Positions 1,866 through 48,284 of a stretch of DNA of 64,000 bases are shown in pieces. Below the pieces are notes generated by a model, which ran no database searches, was not told the DNA's origin, and saw nothing but the letters and a program-made list of their open reading frames with translations. Every line of letters begins with the position of its first letter. Position 1 is the first letter of the stretch. The translations under genes and the position numbers were made by a program. The DNA is from Minisyncoccia bacterium. Lineage in GTDB: Bacteria; Patescibacteriota; Minisyncoccia; Phycocordibacterales; UBA918. Location of the stretch: assembly GCA_046598345.1 (NCBI GenBank), contig JBKJIT010000003.1, positions 156,549 to 220,548 of the forward strand, in the 5' to 3' direction.

Positions 1866-2175
1866 GTATCGCTCCGCTTCGTACATGTCGTGTCAGGTTG
1901 CTAATTCACTACGTTCACTTCGCTTCGGACATTGTCGTCACGAGTTACTAAGTTGAATTTCAGCTTCGCTCAAATTCTACTAAGTACTCGCGACCCCACC
2001 TCACTCACTTTGTTTCCTTATGGTCAACAAAGTATCGTTCCGGTTCGGACATAATCAGTCGTCACTGATTGCTAAGTATAATTATCGCTTTGCTCAAATT
2101 ATTCTAAGCATCATCGACCCCAGCTCGCTGGTTCGCTGCTCAAGGTATAGCAGCTCACATCGCTCCGCTTCGGAC
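1866..2175. repeat. degenerate tandem repeats of about 120 bp (family B), next to tRNA-Ile
   Basis: units begin at 1870, 1921, 2038 and 2161 with CG(C/T)TCCG(C/G)TTCGGACA, which resembles the complement of the adjacent tRNA 3' end GTCCGCCCGCTTGGAC; units share GTCGTCAC, TT(G/A)CTAAGT, GCTCAAATT.T.CTAAG and CGACCCCA(C/G)CTC; homologous stretches recur at 34141-34200 and, inverted, at 35570-35625. Confidence 0.6.
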
Positions 2176-4652: not shown

Positions 4653-6872
4653 TCATTCCATATGGAGATCTTTGCCAAGTGTCAGAATCTTTTCGCGAAG
4701 AAGGGGATACTCCGTAAGTTCGGAGTCAGTCTCTATAAGTAATTGTGCCTCTTTTCTCGCCGCCTCTACCATCTTTATATTTTTAATCGCCTCCATGCCC
4801 AGGTCGGTGAGCCCCCACTGCTTCATGCCATAGAGTTCACCCGAGCCCCGGAGCGCAAGATCGAATTCCGCGAGCTCAAATCCGTTCTTCGCAGTCGTGA
4901 GTGCCTTGAGGCGCTCGAGGGTGCGTCCACTTTTTCCTGTGCTGTCTTTTGAAGTTACCGCAAAGCAGTACGCTTGGTGCTCACTCCGAATCACTCGCCC
5001 GCGAAGCTGGTGGAGTTGCGAGAGGCCAAATCGCTCTGCGCCTTCAATAAGAATATTAGTTGCGTTTGGCACATTGACGCCCACCTCGACAACCGATGTT
5101 GCGACTAGAATGTCGATGTTGTGTTCAAGAAACCGCTTCATCACGTCATCCTTTTCCTTCGGAGTCATTTTACTGTGGAGGATGCCAATGCGTGCAGTCT
5201 TAAACACTTCCTTTTTGAGTCGCAGAGCCTCTGCTTTTACTGACTTGAGCTGTAGCGCATTTTCTTTTAATGGGTCAGGTTCATCAATGCGCGGGCAGAT
5301 TATGTATGCCTGTCTTCCAGCTTTGATCTCGCCCTTCATATGTTCGTACACCTCAGCAATTTTAGTGGGAATCACGACTTTAGTGATGATGGGCTTTCGT
5401 CCCTTGGGCATTTCGTCGAGAAGGGAAATATCGAGGTCCCCATAGACGGTCAAGGCAAGCGTTCGAGGGATAGGAGTCGCCGTCATGGAGAGGAGGTGCG
5501 GCATACGAGTATCTTTCTTCGCGAGCGCACGCCGTTGCGAGGTCCCAAAGCGATGCTGTTCGTCGATAATGACATGCGCCAGGTGTTTGAATGCAACTGA
5601 TTTGTAGATCAGGGCATGTGTGCCGATAAGAATAGGAATTTCTCCATTCTGCACCCACTTAAGGAGCTGTGTCTTTGAGATTGTCGTTGGCTTTGAGGGA
5701 TTCGTCTTTGAAGGGAACTTCATGCAGCCGCTTCCTGTAATGAGTCCAATCTGAATTGGGAGGTGCTTAAAATATTCGATGAATGACTCGAAATGCTGTT
5801 TCGCAAGGATTTCTGTGGGTGCCATGTAGGCAACTTGGAGATTCCCGTATTCGAGAGAACCCACGGACCTCACGGAGGTCCGGCCTCCGTGAGGATTTAA
5901 ACCTTCCGGTGGCCTCGAGGTGGCGACGGCGTACGCGGTTGTGGCAGCGACCGCCGTCTTTCCGCTTCCCACATCTCCTTCGAGAAGTCGTGACATCGGA
6001 TGCTTCCCGGTGAAGTCCTTCAGCATTGCTGAAATGGCCCGCGTCTGTGCGTTCGTGAGCGGGAACGGGAAGCGAGAGGTGAATGCCTTGATGTGCTCTT
6101 CTTCAGTTTTAAATTGGTAGCTCGTCGAGACGGATATTTGGGCGCGCTCCTTTGCTTTTGCGAGCTGGATGCCAAAGACCTCTTCAAAGGCGAACCGCTT
6201 TCGTGCACTCTCTGCATGTTCCGCTTTCTTAGGAGTGTGTATCCAAATGAGCGCTGTACTAAGTACGGGTAGGTTGTATCGTTTGAGCACTTCGCTAGGT
6301 ATTGGGTCAGCGAGCTTCTCAAGGACGCCTGCACTAAAACACTTTTGCACCGTATGAAAAAACCATTTTGAGGTCACGCCCTTGGTTTCTCGGTATACGG
6401 GATAGATAGTCTCGTCTAAGTTTTCGGTGTTTTTGAAAATGGAATCGTGTCGGTCAATGGGAAGGCTTTCTAACTTTTCAATTTCAGGATTCGCGAGGTA
6501 GAGCTTTCCGTCACTCCCTGTCACTTTTCCCGCGAGCTTTACGTACGTGCCATCGGTGAGCATCTTTGCGATGTACGGTTGGTTAAACCACATGATCTTG
6601 ATTCTCGCTGTGCCATCCTCAACCCAGCCTTCTGAAATCGGTACGCGACTCTTCCACGATTTACGAGTGTTGAGCCCGCCAATTTGTCCATAGACCACCG
6701 CATCCTCTCCCTTTGTGAGTGAGCCAACAGATTGAATCGATGAAATATCCTCGTAGCGCTGCGGTACATGGAGGAGTAGATCTTGCACAGTTAAAACGCC
6801 TAAGCGTTTCAGAGCCTTTTGATGGATCTGATCAACTCTGAAATGGGAAGTAAGGAGATCGTGAGGCGACAC
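4653..6872 (-). CDS. recG: ATP-dependent DNA helicase RecG
   Basis: GDVGSGKT Walker A, DEQHRFG motif II, LSMTATPIPRTL, and an N-terminal wedge-like region beginning ...DLL..P.RYED. The track ORF runs to 7127, but that extension has no internal Met and contains the 6923-6945 hairpin; a GTG at 6872 is proposed as the start (uncertain). Confidence 0.85.
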   Translation of the reverse strand: MSPHDLLTSHFRVDQIHQKALKRLGVLTVQDLLLHVPQRYEDISSIQSVGSLTKGEDAVVYGQIGGLNTRKSWKSRVPISEGWVEDGTARIKIMWFNQPYIAKMLTDGTYVKLAGKVTGSDGKLYLANPEIEKLESLPIDRHDSIFKNTENLDETIYPVYRETKGVTSKWFFHTVQKCFSAGVLEKLADPIPSEVLKRYNLPVLSTALIWIHTPKKAEHAESARKRFAFEEVFGIQLAKAKERAQISVSTSYQFKTEEEHIKAFTSRFPFPLTNAQTRAISAMLKDFTGKHPMSRLLEGDVGSGKTAVAATTAYAVATSRPPEGLNPHGGRTSVRSVGSLEYGNLQVAYMAPTEILAKQHFESFIEYFKHLPIQIGLITGSGCMKFPSKTNPSKPTTISKTQLLKWVQNGEIPILIGTHALIYKSVAFKHLAHVIIDEQHRFGTSQRRALAKKDTRMPHLLSMTATPIPRTLALTVYGDLDISLLDEMPKGRKPIITKVVIPTKIAEVYEHMKGEIKAGRQAYIICPRIDEPDPLKENALQLKSVKAEALRLKKEVFKTARIGILHSKMTPKEKDDVMKRFLEHNIDILVATSVVEVGVNVPNATNILIEGAERFGLSQLHQLRGRVIRSEHQAYCFAVTSKDSTGKSGRTLERLKALTTAKNGFELAEFDLALRGSGELYGMKQWGLTDLGMEAIKNIKMVEAARKEAQLLIETDSELTEYPLLREKILTLGKDLHME

Positions 6873-6922
6873 GTTTCTATAGTACCAGATTGGAAGAAAT
6901 TGAAAGAATACAAAAGAAAAAG

Positions 6923-6945
6923 CCGGCGCAACGTGCGCCGGCTTC
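6923..6945. terminator. hairpin agccggcgcaacgtgcgccggct, likely terminator of the 6955..7563 gene
   Basis: 10-bp GC-rich stem directly downstream (minus sense) of the stop at 6955. Confidence 0.5.
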
Positions 6946-6954
6946 AAATCACGT

Positions 6955-7563
6955 TTACACCCGAGTCTTCCTTGCGGCAACAACGAGCTGTCCGTTCGAG
7001 AATCCGAACGTGACTTCGGTGTCAGTAGTGAGGCCACGGGCCGTGAGATGTGGTATGGGACGATATCGCTCTCCGGTGTCCAAGCGCTTGCGCAAACTGT
7101 CTTCACAGAGTTTCCGAAGCCTATCAAGTGAAGGAACTTCCCGCGCCTTTAATGATACAAAGAGGGGAGTGGCGTTCCGGGGAATGTCTTGGATCAAGAT
7201 CATTAGTCCTTCGCGGGTAATTCGATACGCTCCTTCCGCGAAGAAGTGCTCCGCGGCTGTTAGTGTGTCGGCGTATACTCTTGCCCACTCCGCTGCTTTA
7301 CGTAATGTTGACCCTGAAGGGACAGTCAGGGGTTCAACCTCAGCGCGAATCACGAGGAACCATTCAGAAGTAAATAGGCGCGTGGGGGCTTCTTGCACTT
7401 CTTCTCGTTGTTGATAGAGACTCATCGCGGGGAGAAGAACAAGAAAGAACATCACTGCTAACTTCGCAAACCCCTCTCGATCGTTACTCATGAGTGAAGC
7501 GAGGCACATTGCAAATAGCACAGAGTACCAAACCGCACTTGTTTCAGTCAGTATCTTTTTCAA
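6955..7563 (-). CDS. hypothetical membrane-anchored protein (202 aa)
   Basis: N-terminal hydrophobic segments (AVWYSVLFAMCLASL, MFFLVLLPAMSLY); no named motif recognised. Confidence 0.5.
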   Translation of the reverse strand: MKKILTETSAVWYSVLFAMCLASLMSNDREGFAKLAVMFFLVLLPAMSLYQQREEVQEAPTRLFTSEWFLVIRAEVEPLTVPSGSTLRKAAEWARVYADTLTAAEHFFAEGAYRITREGLMILIQDIPRNATPLFVSLKAREVPSLDRLRKLCEDSLRKRLDTGERYRPIPHLTARGLTTDTEVTFGFSNGQLVVAARKTRV

Positions 7564-26338: not shown

Positions 26339-28390
<2,052 letters not shown>

Positions 28391-28436
28391 TGGCTCTGTA
28401 GCGGCACCGCGTGGTTAATGCTACTATACGCGAAAT

Positions 28437-28742
28437 TTGAAACACATCATGGACCGCGCAAACATTGAAAAACTTGCCCGCATGGCTCGTATAGAACTTC
28501 AGGAAGACGAAGCAGATATTCTTGCAGAAAATATCACGTCAATCTTGAATTACGTGAGTGAAATTAGTGAAATTACGGGAGATAAGGAAGTGGAAAAGAA
28601 AGCTGGTCCTCTTCATAATGTCTTTCGGGAGGATGGTAAGCCACATGCGCCGGGAATCTATACAGACGATCTGCTTAAGGCGGCACCGAATCGGGAGGGA
28701 ATGTATATAAAAGTAAAAAAGATTCTTGAAGATAAAAAATAG
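28437..28742 (+). CDS. gatC: Asp/Glu-tRNA(Asn/Gln) amidotransferase subunit C
   Basis: about 100 aa, IEKLARMARIEL...L..I..Y GatC pattern, directly upstream of gatA. Confidence 0.8.
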   Translation: MKHIMDRANIEKLARMARIELQEDEADILAENITSILNYVSEISEITGDKEVEKKAGPLHNVFREDGKPHAPGIYTDDLLKAAPNREGMYIKVKKILEDKK

Positions 28743-28743
28743 T

Positions 28744-30153
28744 ATGACTATTGAATCGCTTCGAAAAAAATTTATTGAAGGTAGTTACACGCCACTCGAT
28801 GCGTACCATGAGGTGCGGAAGGTTATCGATGCAAAGAATCCAGAACTGAATGCATTTCTCCATGTTTATGATGCAGAAGGAGAGGCAGAGAGTGCAACAA
28901 AGCGTTACGCAGAGGAAGGCGATGCGGCCCCTATGCTTCTGGGTATGCCGATTGCAGTGAAGAACAATATTCTCATGAAAGGGAAGGTGACGACCGCAGG
29001 GTCACGAATGCTCGAGAAGTATGTTGCGTCGTTTGATGCGACGGTAATCGCACGCATGAAGGCCGAGGGCCCAGTATTTGTCGGGGATACCAACCTGGAT
29101 GAATTTGCGATGGGTTCTTCGACAGAAAATTCCGCGTTTGGAGTTACCAAGAATCCTATCGATCCAACGCGTGTCCCGGGAGGCTCATCGGGAGGCTCTG
29201 GTGCTGCGGTGGCAATGGGAGCGGCGGTTGCTGCACTTGGTACTGATACAGGAGGCTCAGTGCGCCTCCCGGGAAGTTTCTGTGGTGTTGTAGGCTTTAA
29301 GCCTACGTATGGCGCTGTTTCGCGCCATGGGCTTATTGCGATGGGTTCATCTCTAGATCAGGCCGGGACCATCACGAACAATGTGAGAGACTCGGAAATC
29401 ATTTTTAATACAGTACGCGGTGAAGATAGGATGGACGCAACGACCATTACGAAAGACACCTATCCACTCGTTTCTACTAAAGAGCGCTACCGAATCGGCG
29501 TACCACGAGATTTTCTCAAAGAAGGTATTGATGCGGATATTCTTGCGGTGTTTGAAAAGAAGATTGAAGCACTAACGCTAGCTGGTCACGAGGTTGTCGA
29601 TGTATCGCTTCCCTTAATGAAGAAAGGGCTCGCGGCGTACTACATCGTGATGCCTGCTGAAGTATCTTCCAATTTGGCGAGGTACGATGGTGTGCGCTAC
29701 GGCCTCCATGTGCCGGGTGACAATCTCCTCGAGGATTATTTGAAGACGCGAGCGGAAGGTTTCGGGGCTGAGGTAAAGCGAAGAATTTTACTCGGAACAT
29801 ACGTACTCAGTGCGGGGTACTACGATGCGTATTACGGAAAGGCTGAACGAGTCCGGGCGCTTATGCGGGATGAGCTCGCGCAGGCATTTGCTGATATTGA
29901 TCTCATAATGACGCCAACTGCTCCTATTGTGCCACCCAAGATCGGAGAAAAGAGCGATCCGCTTTCTATGTATCTCTTGGATATTTGTACCGTTTCAGTA
30001 AATCTTACCGGTGTGCCAGCCATTTCTATTCCAAGTGGCAGTGTAGAACGCGACGGAACAGCACTCCCGGTTGGGGTACAATATATAGCACCACTTAATG
30101 GTGACGACCGCCTCTTCGATTTCGGCAAAAGAATTTTTGACGAATCTTTGTAG
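28744..30153 (+). CDS. gatA: Asp/Glu-tRNA amidotransferase subunit A (amidase family)
   Basis: amidase signature GGSSGGSGAAVA and the Ser-cisSer-Lys triad context; ATG at 28744 lies 1 nt after the gatC stop; the track's start at 28726 is a TTG inside gatC. Confidence 0.9.
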   Translation: MTIESLRKKFIEGSYTPLDAYHEVRKVIDAKNPELNAFLHVYDAEGEAESATKRYAEEGDAAPMLLGMPIAVKNNILMKGKVTTAGSRMLEKYVASFDATVIARMKAEGPVFVGDTNLDEFAMGSSTENSAFGVTKNPIDPTRVPGGSSGGSGAAVAMGAAVAALGTDTGGSVRLPGSFCGVVGFKPTYGAVSRHGLIAMGSSLDQAGTITNNVRDSEIIFNTVRGEDRMDATTITKDTYPLVSTKERYRIGVPRDFLKEGIDADILAVFEKKIEALTLAGHEVVDVSLPLMKKGLAAYYIVMPAEVSSNLARYDGVRYGLHVPGDNLLEDYLKTRAEGFGAEVKRRILLGTYVLSAGYYDAYYGKAERVRALMRDELAQAFADIDLIMTPTAPIVPPKIGEKSDPLSMYLLDICTVSVNLTGVPAISIPSGSVERDGTALPVGVQYIAPLNGDDRLFDFGKRIFDESL

Positions 30154-30176
30154 GACCGCACCTGTGCGTAGGTTCT

Positions 30177-30782
30177 ATGTACCCCACAGTAAATATTGAT
30201 GAACAAACGATAGAAGGCCCTGGGCTCGATGCATTTCTTAGCATTGGGGATTCATTTCCTGGTCTCTCAGGGTTCTTTGGTGGTTTTCTGAATGGCTTGG
30301 AACACTGGTGGAGTATTTACTCTATATTTGCGATGGTCCTGTCACTCGTGTTTTTCCTTGGATTTATTTATGCTCGAATTCGGTTTGGCGAACAGATCGA
30401 AATTGAGCAACAGGGTCTGCGTAAAGAAGAGGAAAAGTGGCGACTCAAGTATGAAGCTGGTTCAACAGGGAATAGTCGGTGGTCACAAATTCAAGAACAC
30501 GTACGTGATGATAGTCCCTCTGCGTGGCGTATTGCGATTATTGAAGCTGATATCCTGCTTGAAGAAACACTCACCAATGCGGGGTACGTGGGAATGACTA
30601 TTGGAGAAAAGCTCAAAGGGGCAAACCCGCTTTCATTTACGACGCTCCATGATGCGTGGGAAGCGCACAAAGTGCGTAATGAAATTGCGCACGCAGGGAG
30701 CGATTTTGTGCTTACGAAAAAAATTGCAGCGGAAACTATCGTACGATTTGAGCGTGTGTTTCGAGAATTTGGAGTGATTTAG
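30177..30782 (+). CDS. hypothetical membrane protein (201 aa)
   Basis: one TM segment (IYSIFAMVLSLVFFLGFIYA); no motif recognised. Confidence 0.5.
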   Translation: MYPTVNIDEQTIEGPGLDAFLSIGDSFPGLSGFFGGFLNGLEHWWSIYSIFAMVLSLVFFLGFIYARIRFGEQIEIEQQGLRKEEEKWRLKYEAGSTGNSRWSQIQEHVRDDSPSAWRIAIIEADILLEETLTNAGYVGMTIGEKLKGANPLSFTTLHDAWEAHKVRNEIAHAGSDFVLTKKIAAETIVRFERVFREFGVI

Positions 30783-30784
30783 TA

Positions 30785-30827
30785 ACAAGAACAAGAAAAG
30801 ACTGGCATGAACCAGTCTTTTCTTGTT
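30785..30827 (+). terminator. terminator hairpin aacaagaaaagactgg-catgaa-ccagtcttttcttgtt
   Basis: 16-bp perfect stem immediately after the stop at 30782. Confidence 0.65.
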
Positions 30828-30848
30828 CTTGTTGCGGGGCCCGGAATC
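30826..30848 (-). repeat. isolated copy of the 3' end of tRNA-fMet (TCGATTCCGGGCCCCGCAACAAG in minus sense)
   Basis: cttgttgcggggcccggaatcga at 30826-30848 repeats the sequence at 30994-31016; the real tRNA lies about 150 nt away. Confidence 0.6.
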
Positions 30849-30967
30849 GACATCGAATCACTAGTTCACTTCGTTCATAAGTGTTCGTTAGCTCGGCTCA
30901 CTCATTTGACATTAGGAATAGTCAAATTGAGTTCCGCATGTTCGATTCCTGAGCACAAGAAACGAAA

Positions 30968-30990
30968 ACGCCAGCAAAAGCTGGCATTTT
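30968..30990. terminator. hairpin gccagcaaaagctggc with flanking A and T runs, terminator for minus-strand tRNA-fMet
   Basis: hairpin 10 nt after the tRNA 3' end in minus sense. Confidence 0.5.
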
Positions 30991-30998
30991 CTCTCTTG

Positions 30999-31069
30999 TT
31001 GCGGGGCCCGGAATCGAACCGGGGTCTGGAGGTTATGAGCCTCCCGAGGTACCTCTCCTCTACCCCGCG
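30999..31069 (-). tRNA. initiator tRNA-fMet (CAU)
   Basis: reverse complement CGCGGGGTAGAGGAGAGGTACCTCGGGAGGCTCATAACCTCCAGACCCCGGTTCGATTCCGGGCCCCGCAA is very close to E. coli tRNA-fMet; C1xA72 mismatch and A11-U24 pair (initiator hallmarks); anticodon loop CTCATAA; only 2 of the 3 G-C pairs at 29-31/39-41. Confidence 0.8.
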
Positions 31070-31110
31070 ATGTAATACTCCTATGAGTACATACGAATGT
31101 ACCGTATGTT

Positions 31111-31822
31111 GTGTCCATATGCAAACGTATATGTTATAAATTCTTCATGCAATGCGTTATATTGGCTGCAGGGAAGGGTACGCGACTTCGTCCATTTACC
31201 GATCATACTCCTAAGCCTCTCATACAAGTGGGTGATCGAGCGCTTCTCGATCACATTGTTGAAGCTCTTCCCACTGAGGTGGATGAAATCATCTTAGTTA
31301 TCGGATACTTAGGGGATCAGCTACGTTCATATTGTGGTACTGAATTTCATGGAAGAAAGATGACCTATGTAGAGCAGGTAGTGCAGGACGGCACAGCAAG
31401 GGCGTTGTGGCTTTGCAAAGAATATCTTAAGGGAAGGTTTTTTCATGTTTGCCGATGATATTCATGGAGAGGAGGATGTTAAGAGAGCCCTCAAGTACCC
31501 GCGCTCACTCCTTGTTATGAAAAGTGAGCATCCTGAACGGTTTGGTGTGGTGGTCCAGCATGCGGATGGAACACTCGCAGAGCTTATTGAAAAGCCTGAA
31601 AATCCACCAACGAATCTGGTTTCTACTGGCGGTATAGTGCTTGATGAACATATCTTTGATTTCGAGGCGAAAGCACCAGTAAAAGGAGAATATTACTTAA
31701 CAGAGGTAGTACAAGAATACGCGCATACATATCCGGTCATGGTAGTTGAAGAAAACCTCTGGATTCCTATTGGCTACCCAGAAGATATTCCCCGTGCGGA
31801 GAAAATATTGAGCTTGAAATAG
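31111..31822 (+). pseudogene. sugar-phosphate nucleotidyltransferase (RmlA/GlmU-N-like) split by a 1-nt frameshift in a T6 run (31440-31445)
   Basis: ORF 31111..31458 (ILAAGKGTRLRPFTDHTPKPL motif) and ORF 31445..31822 (FADDIHGEE..., matching the expected F.v.GDnI catalytic region) are adjacent in frames 0 and +1; removing one T from ggttttttcatg fuses them into ...KGRFFMFADDIHGE. Confidence 0.7.
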
Positions 31823-31876
31823 TGTATTGAATCACCATCTATCTAATGGTATTCTTTCGAGGCTTAACACAAATAT

Positions 31877-31950
31877 GTCGGCGTAGCTCAGTTGGTTAGA
31901 GCATCTCACTCATAAAGAGAAGGTCGGAAGTTCAACTCTTCCCGTCGACA
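31877..31950 (+). tRNA. elongator-type tRNA with CAU anticodon (Met, or Ile2 if lysidinylated)
   Basis: acceptor GTCGGCG/CGTCGAC (G1-C72 paired), D-arm GCTC-AGTTGGTTA-GAGC (C11-G24), loop CTCATAA, T-arm GGAAG-TTCAACT-CTTCC, discriminator A. Confidence 0.8.
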
Positions 31951-31954
31951 CTAG

Positions 31955-31992
31955 CACACAAAAAGCTGGATATCCGTCCAGCTTTTTGTGTG
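31955..31992 (+). terminator. terminator hairpin cacacaaaaagctgga-tatccg-tccagctttttgtgtg
   Basis: 16-bp stem immediately after the tRNA. Confidence 0.65.
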
Positions 31993-31997
31993 TCTCT

Positions 31998-32021
31998 GTA
32001 AGTCGACGGGAAGAGTTGAAG
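31998..32021. repeat. inverted copy of the tRNA-Met 3' end (gtcgacgggaagagttgaa is the reverse complement of ttcaactcttcccgtcgac); a direct partial copy caactcttcccgtc lies at about 32117-32130
   Basis: read directly from sequence. Confidence 0.55.
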
Positions 32022-32181
32022 AGAGCGAGTATATCGCACGGAGTGAAACGAGTACGATTCGAGCGACGGGGCAGCGAGTTCTTAATATTTTGAAGTATGA
32101 AAAATATTTAGAACTGGCGCCAACTCTTCCCGTCTCCGGCCTTCATCTAATCCGCATAAGAGCCTGTGTCATAATGGTCAT

Positions 32182-33393
32182 ATGAAAATAAGTCTTTCTA
32201 GAATCATTCGAGGTTTTTTCTTAGCGACTCTTCTCTCGTCTATTACGTTCGTTTCACCAGTGTTTGCTGCAACTTCAAATACCGCTGCATCCAAAAGCGT
32301 ATTTAAGGAGAGTATTAGTACGCTGGATATTCGAGAGAAATTTGAAAAAGCTTCGAGTACCAAGTCAAAAACAGAAAAGGTAAAAATACTTATCGTGCCG
32401 GGGCACGACGACAAATATGCCGGGGCTCTTTTTGGTGATATACGGGAGGCAGACTTGACGCTTAGGCTCGGAAAAGAATTGCATGCGCTTCTTAAGAAAG
32501 AGAAGGGTGTGGAAACCACTTTGCTTCGCACAGAAAAAGGGTACGATCCACATTTTTCAAACTACATAACAAAGAATCTAAAGTCGATTCTCAAATTTCG
32601 GGAGTCCAAACAGACGACAATGCAGAAGCTTATACTAGAGGGGAAAGTACAGGATTATTCCAATGTAAGCCACAATAATGCGTTACCGTCGGTTGCCACA
32701 ATCCTCTATGGCATTAACAAATACGCAAACGACAATGAGTATGACATTGTGCTCCACATACATTTTAATGATTACCCAGGCCACGGGGCCCTCCCGGGAA
32801 CCTATACTGGTTTTACAATATATGTACCTGAGAAACAGTTTGGAAATGCAAAGGCAAGCCAGGATCTCGCCAAAAAAGTACGCGATCAGCTTAGCCTCGT
32901 TTCAGCGGAAAGTAGCCATCCACAAGAAGACGGGATCACCCCAGATCAAGAGCTCATTGGTATTGGGGCATACAATACCCTTAGTGCCGCGGTCATTCTG
33001 ACCGAATACGGATATGTGTATGAACCGCAATTTATTGATCCCGCCATTGCTCCTACAGTGATTACAGAACTTGCTCGCCAGACGTACGTTGGGGTTATGA
33101 ATTATCTTAAAAACACCAAGATAGTGAAAACGACCTATCCTACGCTTGAAGGATACGTCTGGAAAAAGGAGCTCTCTACGAATTCAGGCTTGGATATTCT
33201 CGCACTCCAGGATCTCCTGTATGAATGGGAACTGTATCCAAACGAGGAATCACTAAATACATGTCAACTACACGGTCAGTATAATAGATGCATCACGAAT
33301 GGAATCCGTAAATTCCAAAAGGAAAATAAGCTAAAAGTAACTGGACTGTTTAATAAGGCGACACGTGCAGCAGTGAATCAATTGGCAAAATAA
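32182..33393 (+). CDS. N-acetylmuramoyl-L-alanine amidase (Amidase_3) with C-terminal peptidoglycan-binding domain, secreted
   Basis: signal peptide; ILIVPGHDDKYAG...; C-terminal LALQDLLYEWELY...NGIRKFQKENKLKVTGLFNKATRAAV resembles PG_binding_1. Confidence 0.75.
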   Translation: MKISLSRIIRGFFLATLLSSITFVSPVFAATSNTAASKSVFKESISTLDIREKFEKASSTKSKTEKVKILIVPGHDDKYAGALFGDIREADLTLRLGKELHALLKKEKGVETTLLRTEKGYDPHFSNYITKNLKSILKFRESKQTTMQKLILEGKVQDYSNVSHNNALPSVATILYGINKYANDNEYDIVLHIHFNDYPGHGALPGTYTGFTIYVPEKQFGNAKASQDLAKKVRDQLSLVSAESSHPQEDGITPDQELIGIGAYNTLSAAVILTEYGYVYEPQFIDPAIAPTVITELARQTYVGVMNYLKNTKIVKTTYPTLEGYVWKKELSTNSGLDILALQDLLYEWELYPNEESLNTCQLHGQYNRCITNGIRKFQKENKLKVTGLFNKATRAAVNQLAK

Positions 33394-33505
33394 GAGCCCC
33401 TTTGCAGGGATTTTATGTTTTGCGCAACGTACTGGCTGCTGTTAAAACTAAGATAAGGGTGTTTAATTATTCCTGATTTACCACTGCCACCTTCCTGAAC
33501 AGTAT

Positions 33506-34042
33506 TTAGTTTGGCTGTACCATTTCGACAATTTCCTGGGCAACTTCTAAGGGAGTCTTGGTATCAGTATCGATTATTCTGCAACCTTCCTTTGAAAAAA
33601 TGTCACGAAGCTTTGGTGCATAAGTTGCGCATTCTTCAGCAAATTGAATGAGCGGTTTACCTGCCGCTCGCTCAATCTCTTTTTCGCTTTCTTTGGTGGG
33701 GTAACGACCGAGCAGGCGTTTCCGAACTATGTCGCCACTGGCGTGTAAGAGAATTAATTCAACCACAGGATGCGTTTCGTCTTGCACTAAACGAACTCTC
33801 TTTGGTTCGTTAAAGCCACAAATTATGGTTGATTTACCCAAGCGTGCATTCTCCGTCCCCACACTAAGCCAATTAGCCGTCTCTTTTTTGTGCCAGGCAG
33901 AACCGCCACCAGCGGGCACACCTCGTTCGTCAAAGTCTCGAATATCGAACTTGTCTTGCGGCAAGAGCTTTTTGAGATGCTCGAGGGCCGAAGATTTACC
34001 GACACCAGAAACTCCACTGATAAAATAGATCTTTGGCTTCAT
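33506..34042 (-). CDS. P-loop NTPase / small kinase-like protein
   Basis: IYFISGVSGVGKSS Walker A at the N-terminus, about 178 aa; family not resolved. Confidence 0.55.
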   Translation of the reverse strand: MKPKIYFISGVSGVGKSSALEHLKKLLPQDKFDIRDFDERGVPAGGGSAWHKKETANWLSVGTENARLGKSTIICGFNEPKRVRLVQDETHPVVELILLHASGDIVRKRLLGRYPTKESEKEIERAAGKPLIQFAEECATYAPKLRDIFSKEGCRIIDTDTKTPLEVAQEIVEMVQPN

Positions 34043-34140
34043 GTCTAAATCATAACAAAAACAGACCCTTTAGAGAAAGTCTGTTTTTGAGCCGGGATAC
34101 AGTTATTCATATGGTCACGAGTCACTCAGTAAAATGCTTA

Positions 34141-34302
34141 CATTTGTACTAAGTGCTTTCGACCCCACCTCACGTGCCCCCGGCATCGTTCCGGTTCGCA
34201 TTTAGACACTGACACAAAGCAGTTTGTGTCATAGAACAAAACACCATCATTTCATGATGGTGTTTTGTTCTATCTAACTGCGCGGCGGACGGGACTCGAA
34301 AC
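34141..34302. repeat. family-B repeat segment plus a 19-bp-arm hairpin (34231-34273) plus an isolated, minus-oriented copy of the last 28 nt of tRNA-Asp (34274-34302)
   Basis: TTGTACTAAGTGCTTTCGACCCCACCTCAC and ATCGTTCCGGTTCG match the 1975-2055 repeat; taactgcgcggcggacgggactcgaaac is the reverse complement of GTTTCGAGTCCCGTCCGCCGCGCAGTTA; hairpin gacacaaagcagtttgtgtc (34211-34230) recurs inverted at 35500-35521. Confidence 0.6.
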
Positions 34303-34352
34303 GTATTGATAACTTGTTTAGGTAAATATACTGTCATGACATACTATGTACT

Positions 34353-35009
34353 ATGCCCATACAAAAGATTGTACAATCAGATTTTTTTAAAACATGGAGT
34401 CATGGCATGGCGTACATTTTGGGATTTTTTGCAGCAGACGGAAGTATAACGAAGACAAAAAGAAATACTCATTTTATTTCGTTTACTTCTGCCGATAGAG
34501 AGATTTTATCCGCCATACAAAGATTGATGAAGTCTAATCATAAATTATCCGAACGAAAATCTAAGACCGGTTGTGTCTATCGTTTCCAAATTGGTAGCAA
34601 AGTCATTTTTAATGACCTCATTGCACTTGGTTTTAGTAAACGCAAATCAACTCGTATGCTCATGCCTAATATCCCCAATCAATACATTCCAGATTTCATT
34701 CGGGGTTATTTTGATGGTGATGGAAATGTTTGGATTGGTTATATGAATAAACACAGAGAAAGGCAGACAAAAGTAATCCAAGTCGCATTTACAAGCGGAA
34801 GTAAAAAATTTCTTGAAACGCTTTTATCTCTCTTGCGAGAGAGAGGGATACGAGGTGGCTCACTTTACTCATCAAAGACAAAGAATTTTTCTCGACTTTC
34901 CTTAAGTACTTTAGATGCTTTGAAACTGAAGGGAATCATGTATAATGGGCAACCGAAGCTCTATTTGAAAAGAAAAAAGCTTCGCTTTGATACGTATAAA
35001 TCAATGTAA
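34353..35009 (+). CDS. LAGLIDADG homing endonuclease, double-motif type, free-standing immediately upstream of an intron-containing tRNA
   Basis: AYILGFFAADGSI and FIRGYFDGDGNV, two LAGLIDADG motifs about 100 aa apart; the stop codon lies 2 nt before the tRNA 5' end. Confidence 0.85.
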   Translation: MPIQKIVQSDFFKTWSHGMAYILGFFAADGSITKTKRNTHFISFTSADREILSAIQRLMKSNHKLSERKSKTGCVYRFQIGSKVIFNDLIALGFSKRKSTRMLMPNIPNQYIPDFIRGYFDGDGNVWIGYMNKHRERQTKVIQVAFTSGSKKFLETLLSLLRERGIRGGSLYSSKTKNFSRLSLSTLDALKLKGIMYNGQPKLYLKRKKLRFDTYKSM

Positions 35010-35011
35010 CT

Positions 35012-35307
35012 GCGGTGGTAGCTCAACTGGTTAGAGCACCCGCCTGTAGACGTGCAGCTTTCTTTCCGAAAGGGGGATTGAAACTTTCCGGGATAACGGT
35101 GAAGGCTAAGTTTGCCATTTGGCGAATATGCGAATACCGTGGGAACCTTATACACAAAAACACATAGTATAAGGGCGCCGTAGAGACTAGATACCGGGAT
35201 ATCTAAAAGTTTGAAAAAACTCATGATAAAGATATAGTCCACGCCACTATGAAAATAGTGGAAGCAGTGCACGCGGGAGGTTGCGGGTTCGAGTCCCGTC
35301 CGCCGCG
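35012..35307 (+). tRNA. tRNA-Asp(GUC) interrupted by a 222-nt group I intron between anticodon positions 35 and 36
   Basis: exons 35012..35047 and 35270..35307 join to GCGGTGGTAGCTCAACTGGTTAGAGCACCCGCCTGTCACGCGGGAGGTTGCGGGTTCGAGTCCCGTCCGCCGCG plus discriminator G. This matches E. coli tRNA-Asp closely (loop CTGTCAC, G73, C38, G10); 5' exon ends in U, intron ends in G. Confidence 0.8.
35048..35269 (+). mobile_element. group I intron (small, ORF-less) in tRNA-Asp
   Basis: internal guide GTGCAG at intron nt 5-10: CAG pairs the exon CUG(U.G) to form P1 with a U.G wobble at the splice site, and GTG pairs the 3' exon CAC (P10). An R-like element tagagactag lies at 35181-35190 and an exact S element aagatatagtcc at 35229-35240; a P9-like hairpin ccactat-gaaa-atagtgg precedes the terminal G at 35269. 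Confidence 0.75.
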
Positions 35308-35342
35308 CAGTTAGTAAAAGTCGGCCTTGTGCCGATTTTTTC

Positions 35343-35452
35343 GTGCGCGTCAGGGACTCGAAGAGGTTGCCAGCTATTTGTGACCGAAGGAAACAAATAG
35401 CGACAACCTGTACTGAACATGTAATGTTCGAGTCCCGTCCGCCGCGCAGTTA
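35343..35452 (+). repeat. family-A element L1: an inverted tRNA-Gln-like 3' piece, then GTTGCCAG plus hairpin plus core CGACAACCTGTACTGAACATGTAATGTTCGAGTCCC, ending in an exact copy of the tRNA-Asp 3' end (35426-35452)
   Basis: 35366-35436 aligns with 46480-46540 across a roughly 70-nt homologous span; the last 27 nt equal tRNA-Asp positions 53-73 plus CAGTTA. Confidence 0.6.
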
Positions 35453-35457
35453 AATAA

Positions 35458-35493
35458 ACCTAAAAACCACAGTCTAAGGACTGTGGTTTTTAG
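35458..35493 (+). terminator. terminator hairpin cctaaaaaccacagtc-ctta-gactgtggtttttagg
   Basis: perfect 16-bp stem; followed by hairpin gaacacaaactgctttgtgttc (35500-35521). Confidence 0.6.
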
Positions 35494-35654
35494 GTTTAGA
35501 ACACAAACTGCTTTGTGTTCGTATCTAACTGTGAGCTAGAGTCATGTTTTTGCTACACAAAATGCAAAATAGACGAGGCCGGGTCGAGAGTGCTTAAGAG
35601 CAAAGCGAATTAGCAACTCCTGACCAGTACCCAGCGAAAGGGATTTGAAAAGAC

Positions 35655-35730
35655 TGGAGCCGTCTCCGAGGATCGAACTCGGGACCTTTGCGTTACGAAT
35701 GCAATGCTCTACCAACTGAGCTAAGACGGC
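35655..35730 (-). tRNA. tRNA-Thr(CGU) with encoded CCA
   Basis: reverse complement GCCGTCTTAGCTCAGTTGGTAGAGCATTGCATTCGTAACGCAAAGGTCCCGAGTTCGATCCTCGGAGACGGCTCCA; loop TTCGTAA; A31xC39 mismatch; a family-B repeat piece lies downstream at about 35570-35625. Confidence 0.8.
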
Positions 35731-36003: not shown

Positions 36004-36615
36004 GTGATTAAAGAAAATCTCGAATTACAGTATCTCGTACAGCAGAAATCTGTAAGTCAAATTGCGGGAGAAGAGAAATGTTCACAAAACAAAATCACAT
36101 ATTGGCTCGAAAAACACAAAATTCCAAAACGGACAATTTCCGATGCTCTTTACATTAAATATAATCCACAGGGAGATCCGTTCCTATTTAAAAAACCAAA
36201 AAGTTCTGAAGAATGGTTTATATATGGTCTTGGACTAGGTCTGTTCTGGGGTGAGGGGAATAAGATGAATAAAAATTCTGTGCGACTTGGAAATACTGAC
36301 GGAGATTTGTTAAATTTATTTCTATACTTTTTACAGTCTGTTTATCAAATTAACGAACAGAAGTTACGCTTTGGATTACAGCTCTTTACTGATATTCCAA
36401 AAGAAAAGGCACTCGAATATTGGTCTCAGAAATTAAAAGTTTCAAAGAGTAAATTTCAAAAAATTGTTGTAACTAAGTCAGTACGCAAAGGTATCTACAA
36501 AAAGAAAAGCGAGTATGGGGTTCTGACCATCTATTTTTCGAACACCAAACTTCGTGATAGTATCATGGCTGCAATTACCGAATTGCGTGGGAAACTTTAC
36601 AATAAGCCATCTTAG
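36004..36615 (+). CDS. putative LAGLIDADG-type homing endonuclease (single motif with N-terminal HTH-like region), free-standing; stop codon lies inside tRNA-Thr positions 8-10
   Basis: WFIYGLGLGLFWGEGN fits the LAGLIDADG pattern (acidic residue at motif position 8); N-terminal LQYLVQQKSVSQIAGE...KITYWL is HTH-like; TAG at 36613-36615 overlaps gccatctTAGctc. Confidence 0.55.
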   Translation: MIKENLELQYLVQQKSVSQIAGEEKCSQNKITYWLEKHKIPKRTISDALYIKYNPQGDPFLFKKPKSSEEWFIYGLGLGLFWGEGNKMNKNSVRLGNTDGDLLNLFLYFLQSVYQINEQKLRFGLQLFTDIPKEKALEYWSQKLKVSKSKFQKIVVTKSVRKGIYKKKSEYGVLTIYFSNTKLRDSIMAAITELRGKLYNKPS

Positions 36616-36882
36616 CTCAGTCGGTAGAGCGCATCCATGGTAAGTCGCATGACTTCTTGCCCTTCAGACTGGAAACTGTCTGATGAAACCCGAATTACGG
36701 TTAAAAACTCAGGTGGAGTTAAGACCGTGGCCCAATTACCCCAATGGGCCCGAACGACTGACAAGGGGCGCTTCATTCAAGTTGAATATGCGTAAGATAC
36801 AGTCTAGTCCCCATATATCACTTTTTATAAATTGGGGTGTAAGCGAAGGATGAGGTCCACGGTTCAATCCCGTGAGATGGCT
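36606..36882 (+). tRNA. tRNA-Thr(GGU) interrupted by an intron of about 204 nt between positions 36 and 37
   Basis: exons 36606..36641 and 36846..36882 join to GCCATCTTAGCTCAGTCGGTAGAGCGCATCCATGGTAAGGATGAGGTCCACGGTTCAATCCCGTGAGATGGCT, close to E. coli tRNA-Thr(GGU); 5' exon ends in U, intron ends in G. Confidence 0.75.
36642..36845 (+). mobile_element. probable group I intron in tRNA-Thr(GGU)
   Basis: CTTGCC at intron nt 15-20 can pair the 3' exon AAG (P10) and the 5' exon GGU (P1, U.G at the splice site); an S-like taagatacagtctagtcc element lies near the 3' end; the core is less canonical than in the Asp intron. Confidence 0.55.
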
Positions 36883-36884
36883 CA

Positions 36885-36916
36885 GAAAAAAATCCCTGAA
36901 AGGGGATTTTTTGAGA
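36885..36916 (+). terminator. terminator aaaaaaatccctgaaaggggatttttt after tRNA-Thr
   Basis: hairpin plus T run. Confidence 0.65.
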
Positions 36917-36924
36917 CATCTAGG

Positions 36925-37060
36925 TAAGCAAACTACTTTGCCTGCATCCGGGATTGAAAACCAGAGTCATGTCGCTTGCGACAGACGAGGTCGGGTAGGA
37001 GGTTCTTGGCGAGCCTAGAAACCGGACACCAATCCCGTGAGGTGGCTCAAAAAAATTAAA
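36925..37060 (+). other. tRNA-like remnant ending in a degenerate copy of the tRNA-Thr 3' end (ccaatcccgtgaggtggctca), followed by the strong palindrome at 37058-37097
   Basis: the last 21 nt resemble TTCAATCCCGTGAGATGGCTCA of tRNA-Thr(GGU); no complete cloverleaf can be drawn. Confidence 0.3.
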
Positions 37061-46329: not shown

Positions 46330-46549
46330 CATTGCCAGTTCGTCTAATGGTGGCCAGAAATTAATGAGCGCTGCGATTATAATTTCTGAGTCCGTCTGAT
46401 TTTCTTCCTCACAGAAGAAAATCAGACGTTTGGGAGGTCCTGAGTATTGGGGCTGAAATGATATGGGGTATTATTTCAGGACGTTGCCAGATATTTATAA
46501 AAAATATCGACAACGTGTACTGATCATGTAATGATCGAGTCCCTTACCA
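46330..46549 (+). repeat. split pseudo-copy of tRNA-Gln: the first 21 nt (46330-46351) and a 3' piece inside family-A element L2 (46480-46549, core CGACAACGTGTACTGATCATGTAATGATCGAGTCCC)
   Basis: cattgccagttcgtctaatggt occurs at 46329 and 46560; 46480-46540 aligns with 35366-35436. Confidence 0.55.
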
Positions 46550-46562
46550 GAACAAAAAATAT

Positions 46563-47518: not shown

Positions 47519-48097
47519 ATGGAATCAATACCGTCTCATGAAGAAGTGAAGGTTGTAATTGAACGTGCACGTCCGGAGGATGCAGAAGAAATCCAAACTG
47601 TTTTCTATAAAACCTGGCTCGCAACATATCCTAATGAGGTGTCAGGTGTAACTGTGGATGACGTACATGAATATTACAGGGACAAATTAACTCCAGAAGG
47701 AATCAAAAAATCCCAAAGAAAGATTGAAGAGGATAGTCGAATGGAAAACCTAAGAGTTTTTGTTGCAAAAATCAATGAAAAAGTTGCAGGTGTCTGTATA
47801 GCAAGAATTCTTGAGGACAAGAATCAGTTGAAAGCAATATACGTCTTACCTGAATTTCAAGGAAAGGGAATTGGTTCCAAATTATGGAATCAGGTACTTA
47901 CGTTCATTGATCAGACAAAAGACACGACAGTTGAAGTTGTGACCTATAACAGTAATGCAATCGAGTTTTATAAACGACTAGGTTTTGAAGATACTGGTAG
48001 GAGGTGGACTGATGAAAAATTTCGAATGAAAAGTGGTGCAACGTTTCCAGAAATGGAGATGAAAATTAATGGTTTAGGGTCACTAGAAAAGTTCTAA
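47519..48097 (+). CDS. GNAT-family N-acetyltransferase
   Basis: acetyl-CoA binding motif QLKAIYVLPEFQGKGIGSKLW. Confidence 0.8.
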   Translation: MESIPSHEEVKVVIERARPEDAEEIQTVFYKTWLATYPNEVSGVTVDDVHEYYRDKLTPEGIKKSQRKIEEDSRMENLRVFVAKINEKVAGVCIARILEDKNQLKAIYVLPEFQGKGIGSKLWNQVLTFIDQTKDTTVEVVTYNSNAIEFYKRLGFEDTGRRWTDEKFRMKSGATFPEMEMKINGLGSLEKF

Positions 48098-48284
48098 CAT
48101 TACACCCCAGGGTGCCTTCTTTACCTCGCATGTTCAGTTCAGGTTGTCGCTTTTTCATAAAAACGCTGGCAACCTCCTGAATACATATCCCATATGCATT
48201 CAGCTTCGTCCCATACAGCCAGCTCACTAAGTTGTGGTCGCGGGACACTTGCATAATTGTTATGGTAAAATTTAAATATTCAAA

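Follow-up and report, generated by a model that had tools for sequence, protein, structure and literature searches.

What leaves the 3′ end of a tRNA gene standing, in mirror image, on both sides of that same gene? The question is raised by a 64,000-nucleotide (nt) stretch of a Minisyncoccia bacterium genome (GenBank assembly GCA_046598345.1, contig JBKJIT010000003.1, positions 156,549 to 220,548; hereafter the window, whose own coordinates are used throughout), in which a LAGLIDADG endonuclease gene and an intron-containing tRNA-Asp gene lie between outward-facing tRNA-Asp 3′ ends. A first-pass annotation made from the sequence had offered two explanations, integration of a cassette at tRNA-Asp sites or an inversion at a former tRNA-Asp gene. 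Our analysis favors the latter in a modified form: the mirrored ends probably mark a lineage-specific inversion that broke the tRNA-Asp gene and rebuilt it from spare copies of its own 3′ end.

Mirrored tRNA-Asp 3′ ends and a probable inversion

The locus comprises the following features, from left to right.

33506 to 34042, minus strand: P-loop NTPase/kinase gene (weak AAA_18 match)
34056 to 34107, minus strand: ancestral tRNA-Asp trailer (AATAACTGTATCCCGGCTCAAAAA) and terminator hairpin, upstream of the kinase gene
34108 to 34210, minus strand: X unit (B-X repeat family), an insertion that separates the tRNA 3′ end from the ancestral trailer
34211 to 34230, minus strand: hairpin B, with conserved loop CAAACTGCTTTG
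34231 to 34273, minus strand: hairpin A, terminator-like, with perfect 20-bp arms
34274 to 34300, minus strand: left orphan tRNA-Asp 3′ end, from T54 to 7 nt beyond the tRNA; exact inverted repeat of 35288 to 35314
34301 to 34352, plus strand: native 5′ region of the endonuclease gene with putative promoter; breakpoint at 34300/34301
34353 to 35009, plus strand: free-standing, double-motif LAGLIDADG endonuclease gene (Pfam LAGLIDADG_3, 1.1e-17)
35012 to 35047, plus strand: tRNA-Asp(GUC) 5′ exon, positions 1 to 35 (aragorn -i gives 35012 to 35308 for the gene)
35048 to 35269, plus strand: group I intron at anticodon-loop position 35/36 (Rfam RF00028)
35270 to 35313, plus strand: tRNA-Asp 3′ exon (to 35307) and trailer, including the live 27-mer from G53 (35287 to 35313)
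35318 to 35342, plus strand: terminator of the live tRNA-Asp gene (read from the sequence; stem found on the opposite strand)
35426 to 35452, plus strand: right orphan tRNA-Asp 3′ end (G53 to +6), forming the distal end of a module described below; direct repeat of 35287 to 35313
35455 to 35498, plus strand: hairpin A′, terminator-like
35499 to 35627, plus strand: hairpin B′ (35499 to 35521) and X′ unit

The tRNA-Asp 3′ end is present in three exact copies. The 27-mer GTTCGAGTCCCGTCCGCCGCGCAGTTA, which runs from G53 to 6 nt beyond the gene end, occurs on the plus strand in the live gene (35287 to 35313) and at 35426 to 35452, and its reverse complement at 34274 to 34300 pairs with 35288 to 35314 over 27 nt at 100% identity. 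A 22-mer search allowing up to three mismatches returned 3 matches, against 0.00 expected. All three copies begin within 1 nt of one another, in the T loop. Hairpins A (34231 to 34273) and A′ (35455 to 35498) both have perfect 20-nt arms, and the 18-nt core of hairpin B is found exactly at 34212 to 34229 (minus) and 35501 to 35518 (plus) (2 matches versus 0.04 expected). The outward-facing tRNA ends, the terminator hairpins and hairpin B thus lie where the first-pass annotation had put them. The mirror symmetry is real and extends further than was stated, over arms of about 200 nt (34108 to 34300 versus 35426 to 35627) that include one more repeat unit. Identity between the arms is 70% overall, with 26/26 in the tRNA part and 20/23 in hairpin B, and about 70% outside these two parts.

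The inverted pair that is relevant to the mechanism consists of the left copy and the 3′ end of the live gene, and not just of the third copy. These two form a perfect 27-bp inverted repeat (34274 to 34300 and 35288 to 35314, spaced by 987 nt) that brackets exactly the putative promoter, the endonuclease gene and positions 1 to 53 of tRNA-Asp with its intron. On the right, the direct copies enclose just 112 nt of noncoding sequence.

The kinase gene on the left has orthologues in related loci (numbered with the prefix L), at 86% amino acid identity in L003, 83% in L091/L093 and 81% in L094. In each of them the kinase gene is preceded, at a distance of 57 to 334 nt and on the same strand, by an intact tRNA-Asp gene, and the full order in L094 is tRNA-Met, endonuclease, tRNA-Asp, kinase. 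The trailer of these relatives (AAATAnCnGTA...GGTTCAAAAA) and its terminator align with positions 34056 to 34107 of the window; this trailer stands directly after tRNA-Asp in L003 and L091, and upstream of the kinase gene in L094. Going upstream from the kinase gene in the window, one meets the same trailer, an A-B-X block (34108 to 34273) and then just the 27-nt tRNA 3′ end. The X unit, homologous to 35522 to 35627, to 1930 to 2170 and to tandem units in L074, is absent from the corresponding position in the alignments of L003 and L091. Because both trailer and position match the intact gene of the relatives, the left copy appears to be the in-place remnant of a kinase-linked tRNA-Asp gene cut in its T loop.

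Past the cut, at 34300/34301, the native 5′ region of the endonuclease gene begins in the opposite direction, with homology to L087 from 34318 into the open reading frame (ORF). In L110, the closest endonuclease relative (73% amino acid identity), the sequence upstream of the gene is a tRNA-Met 3′ end, as in most loci, and not a tRNA-Asp copy. The left junction of the window is therefore lineage-specific.

The sequences and the comparison with relatives establish the three exact copies, the family of modules described below, the conserved endonuclease/tRNA-Asp pairing and the ancestral linkage of tRNA-Asp to the kinase gene; from these we infer that recombination passed through the 27-bp copies. 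In the nearest relatives, the co-oriented P-loop kinase gene comes after the endonuclease/tRNA-Asp pair. Breakage of the tRNA-Asp gene in the T loop, at G53/T54, would have left its last 27 nt and the old trailer with the kinase gene (the left copy, minus strand); the endonuclease gene and tRNA positions 1 to 53 would have turned round, and the gene would have been completed by another 27-nt copy, identical to the first and followed by a terminator of its own. Recombination between oppositely oriented spare copies, homologous or enzyme-guided, would invert the intervening DNA and always regenerate a complete tRNA gene. Such an inversion can leave the gene whole because the modules that trail tRNA genes in these genomes hold spare antisense and sense copies of their own tRNA's 3′ end. 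At least one further inversion or translocation would have brought the kinase block to its site downstream of tRNA-Met and ahead of the endonuclease gene, making two or more steps whose order we can only propose. By sequence logic, flipping the bracketed segment rejoins tRNA positions 1 to 53 to the left copy and restores the L094 order of endonuclease, tRNA-Asp and kinase, and either orientation yields a complete tRNA-Asp gene. The junctions of the alternative orientation would read tRNA-Asp 1 to 53 followed by the left trailer ...CAGTTAGATAGAAC, and the right 27-mer followed by the reverse complement of ACGTATTGATAAC. Flanks swapped at the same T-loop position in L107, L108 and L109 also support an inversion.

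The outer synteny shared by L087 (endonuclease 70% identical) and L094, i.e., gatC-gatA, NTP-transferase and tRNA-Met on one side and prfB-ftsE on the other, indicates that the endonuclease/tRNA-Asp pair of the window is in its ancestral place. Neither locus has an amidase or kinase gene between tRNA-Met and the endonuclease gene, whereas the window carries there a 2.35-kb block made up of the amidase gene, the kinase gene, the trailer, X-B-A and the 27-mer. The genes murD and purD, neighbors in L003, were sought as the second half of the split locus and do not occur in the window. The pair is present in L087, L094 and L110, and the segment is inverted relative to the kinase-linked order of L094. 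The tRNA-Thr(CGT) gene (35655 to 35730, minus strand) and the tRNA-Met(CAT) gene (30998 to 31069) are likewise inverted relative to L094 and L091, as is tRNA-Thr(GGT) in L087 relative to the window. Evidently, single tRNA genes often flip here, and the region is prone to rearrangement.

Several observations weigh against the inversion. At least two events are needed to reach the window from an L094-like order, and two or more overlapping inversions fit with no unique order. The left junction has neither a module core nor the end of an insertion sequence (IS) next to it, a single orientation is seen in the two assemblies, and no recombinase or transposase gene was found in the part of the window's ORFs that was scanned. 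The relatives are not very close, with 81 to 86% identity in one protein, and 27 bp is short for RecA-type recombination. Compared with repeat-mediated chromosomal inversions at inverted IS, rRNA or tRNA copies, the locus has the same perfect inverted repeats and a gene order that differs exactly at the repeats. It differs in that the repeats are 27-bp partial gene copies in or beside an essential single-copy tRNA gene, and that each junction rebuilds the gene.

Perfect inverted repeats at the flanks of a segment (27 nt, 100%), as in Hin- and Piv-type systems, would also suit a programmed, reversible switch, both orientations of which keep tRNA-Asp intact and couple it to different downstream sequences. 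The repeat is indeed perfect, including 6 to 7 nt of trailer, while the neighboring sequence has diverged by about 30%, and by sequence logic the gene is reconstituted in either orientation. We nevertheless regard a switch as improbable: there is no invertase nearby among the ORFs examined, both assemblies show one orientation, and the arrangements in relatives are fixed. Mirror symmetry over about 200 nt would also follow if the tRNA-Asp 3′ flank had recently been duplicated in inverted form, for instance by fold-back repair after cleavage by the endonuclease. However, outside the 27-mer and hairpin B the arms are about 70% identical, no closer to each other than either is to L074 (the right B′-X′, 35499 to 35627, is 74% similar to sequence downstream in L074 and 70% to the left arm). 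The left arm is moreover joined to the ancestral trailer and kinase gene, and what the two arms have in common comes from repeat families that also occur at other tRNA genes, which makes such a duplication very unlikely.

An assembly artifact at a short repeat is the least credible explanation. Logan contig SRR31159418_424601 does end at 35424, one base before the right copy, but it is identical to the window over 27301 to 35424, a span that takes in the left junction and the 3′ end of the live tRNA gene without a single mismatch. This independent agreement across both junctions argues against misassembly, as do the length of the repeat, just 27 nt, and the occurrence of analogous structures in many independent assemblies.

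The endonuclease and tRNA-Asp as a resident pair

Matches to Pfam LAGLIDADG_3 and Rfam RF00028 corroborate the presence of a LAGLIDADG gene and an intron-containing tRNA-Asp gene between the arms. The endonuclease has two predicted LAGLIDADG stretches, in which the acidic residues D29 and D121/D123 are invariant among 36 homologues. It has 1310 homologues, and those named by source all come from Patescibacteria. We fetched 80 metagenomic loci carrying relatives of 42 to 58% amino acid identity, 75 of which could be evaluated for tRNA-Asp adjacency. A tRNA-Asp gene directly follows the endonuclease ORF in 66 of the 75, with a median gap of −10 nt, i.e., the ORF end overlaps the tRNA; the other nine mostly have intron-bearing tRNA-Asp genes missed by ARAGORN. 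The recurrent order is tRNA-Met, endonuclease, tRNA-Asp, often followed by tRNA-Thr genes. Across 80+ loci (L007 to L086, L087 and L094), the family between tRNA-Met and tRNA-Asp resembles an ORF punctuated by tRNAs, and tRNA-Met often ends 0 to 75 nt before the endonuclease start. In the window, the ORF stops at 35009, two nt before the tRNA-Asp 5′ end.

The RF00028 match (35052 to 35261) scores 51.4 bits against a gathering score of 50, and the intron splits tRNA-Asp after U35. The exon/intron boundaries, ...CTGT/AGAC...GCAGTG/CAC, have a U before the 5′ splice site and a G at the 3′ end of the intron. The tRNA-Asp gene adjoining the endonuclease has no intron in 54 loci and has one in at least 12, which shows that the endonuclease is free-standing and not intron-encoded. 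The ORF list contains no endonuclease ORF inside the intron (35048 to 35269); the locus thus shows neither the internal ORF nor the co-occurrence of endonuclease and intron that characterize an intron-encoded cassette. Group I introns at position 35/36 of patescibacterial tRNA-Asp and tRNA-Asn genes have been described (Nakagawa et al. 2026, PMC13011429), and the present one shares their insertion site, their host phylum and the fact that default tRNA finders miss it. Most such introns lack endonuclease genes (PMC13011429). Unlike in those cases, a free-standing LAGLIDADG gene here adjoins the tRNA 5′ end, whether the intron is present or not.

The endonuclease gene and tRNA-Asp are an old, fixed pair, and conservation of the endonuclease over a wide clade suggests long residence or domestication. 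T4 SegB is a free-standing homing endonuclease gene of the GIY-YIG family in a phage tRNA cluster. As with SegB, the ORF of the window is wedged between tRNA genes and is not intron-encoded. It differs in being of the LAGLIDADG family, in lying on a bacterial chromosome rather than in a phage, and in its conservation across a wide clade. A similar layout is found further right in the window (36004 to 36883), where a 203-amino-acid ORF with the LAGLIDADG-like motif GLGLGLFWGEGNK and no Pfam match runs into the 5′ end of a tRNA-Thr(GGT) gene and stops there; this tRNA gene (36606 to 36883) contains an intron and is missed by default ARAGORN. The intron of about 200 nt has no RF00028 match, and an endonuclease-like ORF again abuts a tRNA 5′ end.

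Integrative elements classically leave repeats of a tRNA 3′ end behind, both direct and inverted. Both kinds occur in the window, the direct ones at 35287 to 35313 and 35426 to 35452. In L016 (4741 to 6993), a 2.2-kb gene for a 737-amino-acid membrane protein of the Wzy_C (O-antigen ligase-like) type is flanked by tRNA-Asp on one side and, on the other, by 22 nt that repeat the tRNA's 3′ end with one mismatch, an insertion the size of a cargo gene within repeats of the same kind. The endonuclease gene and the intron-bearing tRNA-Asp had been proposed to form a mobile unit, integrated at resident tRNA-Asp att-like sites by a tyrosine or serine recombinase. This proposal did not withstand the comparison, and we consider it highly unlikely. 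The pair occurs in 66 of 75 loci and in its ancestral neighborhood, and the segment is not missing from the syntenic site of L087, L094 or L110. The sole ORF with a domain match between the copies is the LAGLIDADG gene, so that the segment holds no integrase gene; the search for a recombinase, which covered part of the window's ORFs, found neither integrase nor transposase genes within the segment or close to it. Furthermore, the directly repeated copies enclose just a 112-nt noncoding module, and the left copy leads on into the ancestral trailer on the kinase side. As at tRNA att sites, the tRNA 3′ end is duplicated, with the live gene complete and an orphan copy beyond the inserted DNA. Unlike at att sites, there is no integrase, the insert is a 112-nt structured noncoding module that always comes with an antisense copy of the tRNA end, and the third copy is inverted and tied to rearrangement rather than insertion.

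Structured modules that trail tRNA genes

The sequence from 35314 to 35452 is a module composed of a terminator, an antisense copy of the tRNA 3′ end (S′), a hairpin (HP1), a linker, a second hairpin (HP2) and the sense copy (S). Between the terminator and the right orphan copy lie the following parts.

35343 to 35362, plus strand: S′, antisense copy of the tRNA-Asp 3′ end (GTGCGCG-TCA-GGGACTCGAA)
35365 to 35429, plus strand: module core (covariance model R1, 92.3 bits)
35365 to 35408, plus strand: hairpin HP1
35409 to 35416, plus strand: linker TGTACTGA
35415 to 35429, plus strand: hairpin HP2, pairing with G53 to C56 of the next copy

The same core and junction (...CATGTAAT/GTTC...) follow tRNA-Asp in L010 and L074 and tRNA-Met in L074 and L087, and in each of these modules the antisense and sense segments match the local tRNA. 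The segment equivalent to S′ accordingly matches tRNA-Met in L087, and it matches tRNA-Tyr, -Ala or -Ser in L107 to L109. Compensatory changes affect 14 of the 20 hairpin pairs among 11 copies. Covariance model R1 finds 19 copies in 543 kb, 3 of them in the window. Direct copies of at least 12 nt of a gene's own 3′ end lie within 300 nt downstream of 22 of 193 tRNAs, against 1 upstream, and antisense copies of at least 10 nt lie downstream of 24 of 193, against 2 upstream; about 13% of the sampled tRNA genes have such copies. Modules with other types of core follow tRNA-Met on the minus strand (30830 to 30997), tRNA-Met on the plus strand (31952 to 32134) and tRNA-Thr(GGT) on the plus strand (36884 to 37049). 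All three hold antisense and sense copies of their own tRNA 3′ ends, including a perfect 19-nt S′ at 32002 to 32020 and sense copies at 30830 to 30850 and 37030 to 37049.

A second repeat family, B-X, accompanies the modules. Its unit consists of hairpin B, with loop CAAACTGCTTTG, followed by about 110 nt with GAGTCATG...GACGAG...GGGTCGAGA...TGACCA. A short stretch of the unit is antisense to the end and trailer of the local tRNA. Members are found in the window at 1930 to 2170 (minus), 34108 to 34230 (minus), 35499 to 35627 (plus) and 36914 to 37029 (plus), and in L074 at 6310 to 7130. They form six tandem 136-nt units in L074 and also occur after tRNA-Ile in the window, and hairpin B lies 3′ of tRNA genes in L012, L015, L021, L055 and L074. 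Given the recurrence of modules and B-X units at tRNA genes, the mirror symmetry of the locus amounts to two opposite occurrences of the standard sequences that trail tRNA-Asp. The orphan copies are exactly identical in the window, L074, L087 and L108, although the adjacent sequence has diverged by about 30%. Such exact identity suggests that gene conversion, or selection for precise mimicry, may be at work.

Neither the modules nor the B-X repeats match Rfam 15, and the modules were not found in the literature searched. Assignment of 35345 to 35364 to a tRNA-Gln-derived fragment, from a 14-nt match, was discarded in favor of an antisense tRNA-Asp copy, as in other modules. A role of the antisense copies as primer-binding sites was also rejected, since they lack complementarity to mature, CCA-bearing tRNA and in L097 and L109 run into the genomic trailer. 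For the three-way junction, a hammerhead or other known ribozyme was dismissed because the core motifs misfit by inspection and Rfam E-value searches were empty. A consensus scan gave no support for a sigma-70 promoter in the linker.

Variants of these structures were also seen. An orphan core (46477 to 46552; R1, 78 bits) lies just upstream of tRNA-Gln and is followed by a degenerate tRNA-Gln-like 3′ end without an antisense partner, and a weak third R1 copy (33 bits) is found at 48085 to 48179 (minus). In L110 (820 to 900), upstream of tRNA-Asp, the 5′ acceptor strand of the tRNA is copied (GCGGTGGT) and forms a hairpin with the complement of that copy, a 5′-end counterpart of the 3′-end modules. 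Modules are duplicated in tandem in L087 and L010. The Logan contig stops one base before the right 27-mer (35424/35425), though the repeat is shorter than the k of the assembler, which may reflect heterogeneity of module copy number in the population.

An IS110-family element that targets the modules

In L074, the gene of an IS110-family transposase (Pfam DEDD_Tnp_IS110 and Transposase_20), with 181 homologues, lies between tRNA-Asp and its orphan copy. The transposase is present in L074, L095 to L100 and L107 to L109, and a discrete IS of 1340 bp could be delimited in seven loci (L074 at 4841 to 6180, L096, L097, L100, L107, L108 and L109). It has terminal inverted repeats CCACCATAGAACCC / GGGGTTCTATAGACG, with anchors CCACCATAGAACC ... 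GGGGTTCTATAGACG. The insertion site is always GGATTCG^AA, without target duplication, and in 6 of the 7 loci this is where, in a module lying downstream of a tRNA gene, the antisense T loop meets HP1. The IS cores are 100% identical between loci, whereas the flanking module parts are 55 to 74% identical, and IS-free modules are continuous across the insertion point. Identical IS cores within diverged flanks indicate that the modules are the target of the IS. Because the L074 transposase gene lies between the same flanks, we had considered that the 112-nt stretch between the direct copies might be a miniature IS110/IS1111 element without a transposase, the module at 35343 to 35452 being a deletion derivative; this was rejected, the IS being a discrete 1340-bp unit inserted into preexisting modules. 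The right noncoding end of the IS (230 nt) contains ACCTTTTC, which matches the bottom strand of the target across the crossover; a guide scan of this end gave one 8-nt match to the target, with a chance expectation of about 0.14.

IS110/IS1111 recombinases guided by bridge RNA or seekRNA target repeated palindromes, as IS621 and ISPpu9 do at REP elements (PMC11208160, PMC11187229, PMC12288879). The IS of the related genomes similarly inserts at one fixed position of a repeated palindromic module. In contrast to IS621 and ISPpu9, its target is the antisense T loop of a module derived from a tRNA end, and the window has the target module alone, with no IS.

Such a recombinase, acting on T-loop sequences, might itself have catalyzed the inversion, in place of homologous recombination between the 27-bp copies. 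IS110 recombinases can invert DNA in addition to inserting and excising it (PMC11208160). Besides the insertions at GGATTCG^AA in the seven loci, the start of all three window copies within 1 nt in the T loop fits such catalysis. So do identical IS copies with swapped tRNA flanks (Ser...Ala, Tyr...Tyr and Ala...Tyr in L107, L108 and L109), which show that rearrangements at exactly these T-loop positions occur in nature. However, these swaps are equally well explained by homologous recombination between IS copies, and tblastn detected no IS110 transposase in the 64-kb window. There is no IS end at the left junction, and the IS crossover lies in the antisense copy and not at G53/T54 of the sense copy. 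Catalysis by an IS110-family enzyme is thus rather unlikely, less so than a switch or an integrated cassette.

The inversion itself would be an ordinary kind of rearrangement, and the more interesting lead is its substrate, a module that mirrors tRNA ends. We tentatively propose that a previously undescribed class of structured elements trails the tRNA genes of this clade, each with a terminator, an antisense copy of the 3′ strand of the tRNA acceptor and T arms, two covarying hairpins and an exact sense copy. The folded module resembles a tRNA minihelix. Its proposed roles, taken jointly with its novelty as a possible rather than a probable interpretation, are to offer RNA-guided IS110-family elements that recognize a T-loop sequence a place to land without harm and to be a source of spare 3′ ends that let essential single-copy tRNA genes survive T-loop breakage and inversion; the module is possibly also a transcribed RNA in its own right. 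If this is true, the mirrored boundaries of the window would be one visible outcome of such modules.

For annotation, the locus shows that the endonuclease is not the mobile agent here, contrary to a tempting reading. It also exposes a widespread family of structured modules behind tRNA genes, possibly a new element, that appears to be undescribed. As a specific target of an IS110-family element, the modules are relevant to the natural choice of safe sites by RNA-guided recombinases. For the organism, the arrangement suggests that rearrangement around a tRNA gene that is essential and single-copy need not cost an ultra-small genome that gene, as spare exact copies of the 3′ end would make breakpoints in the T loop harmless.

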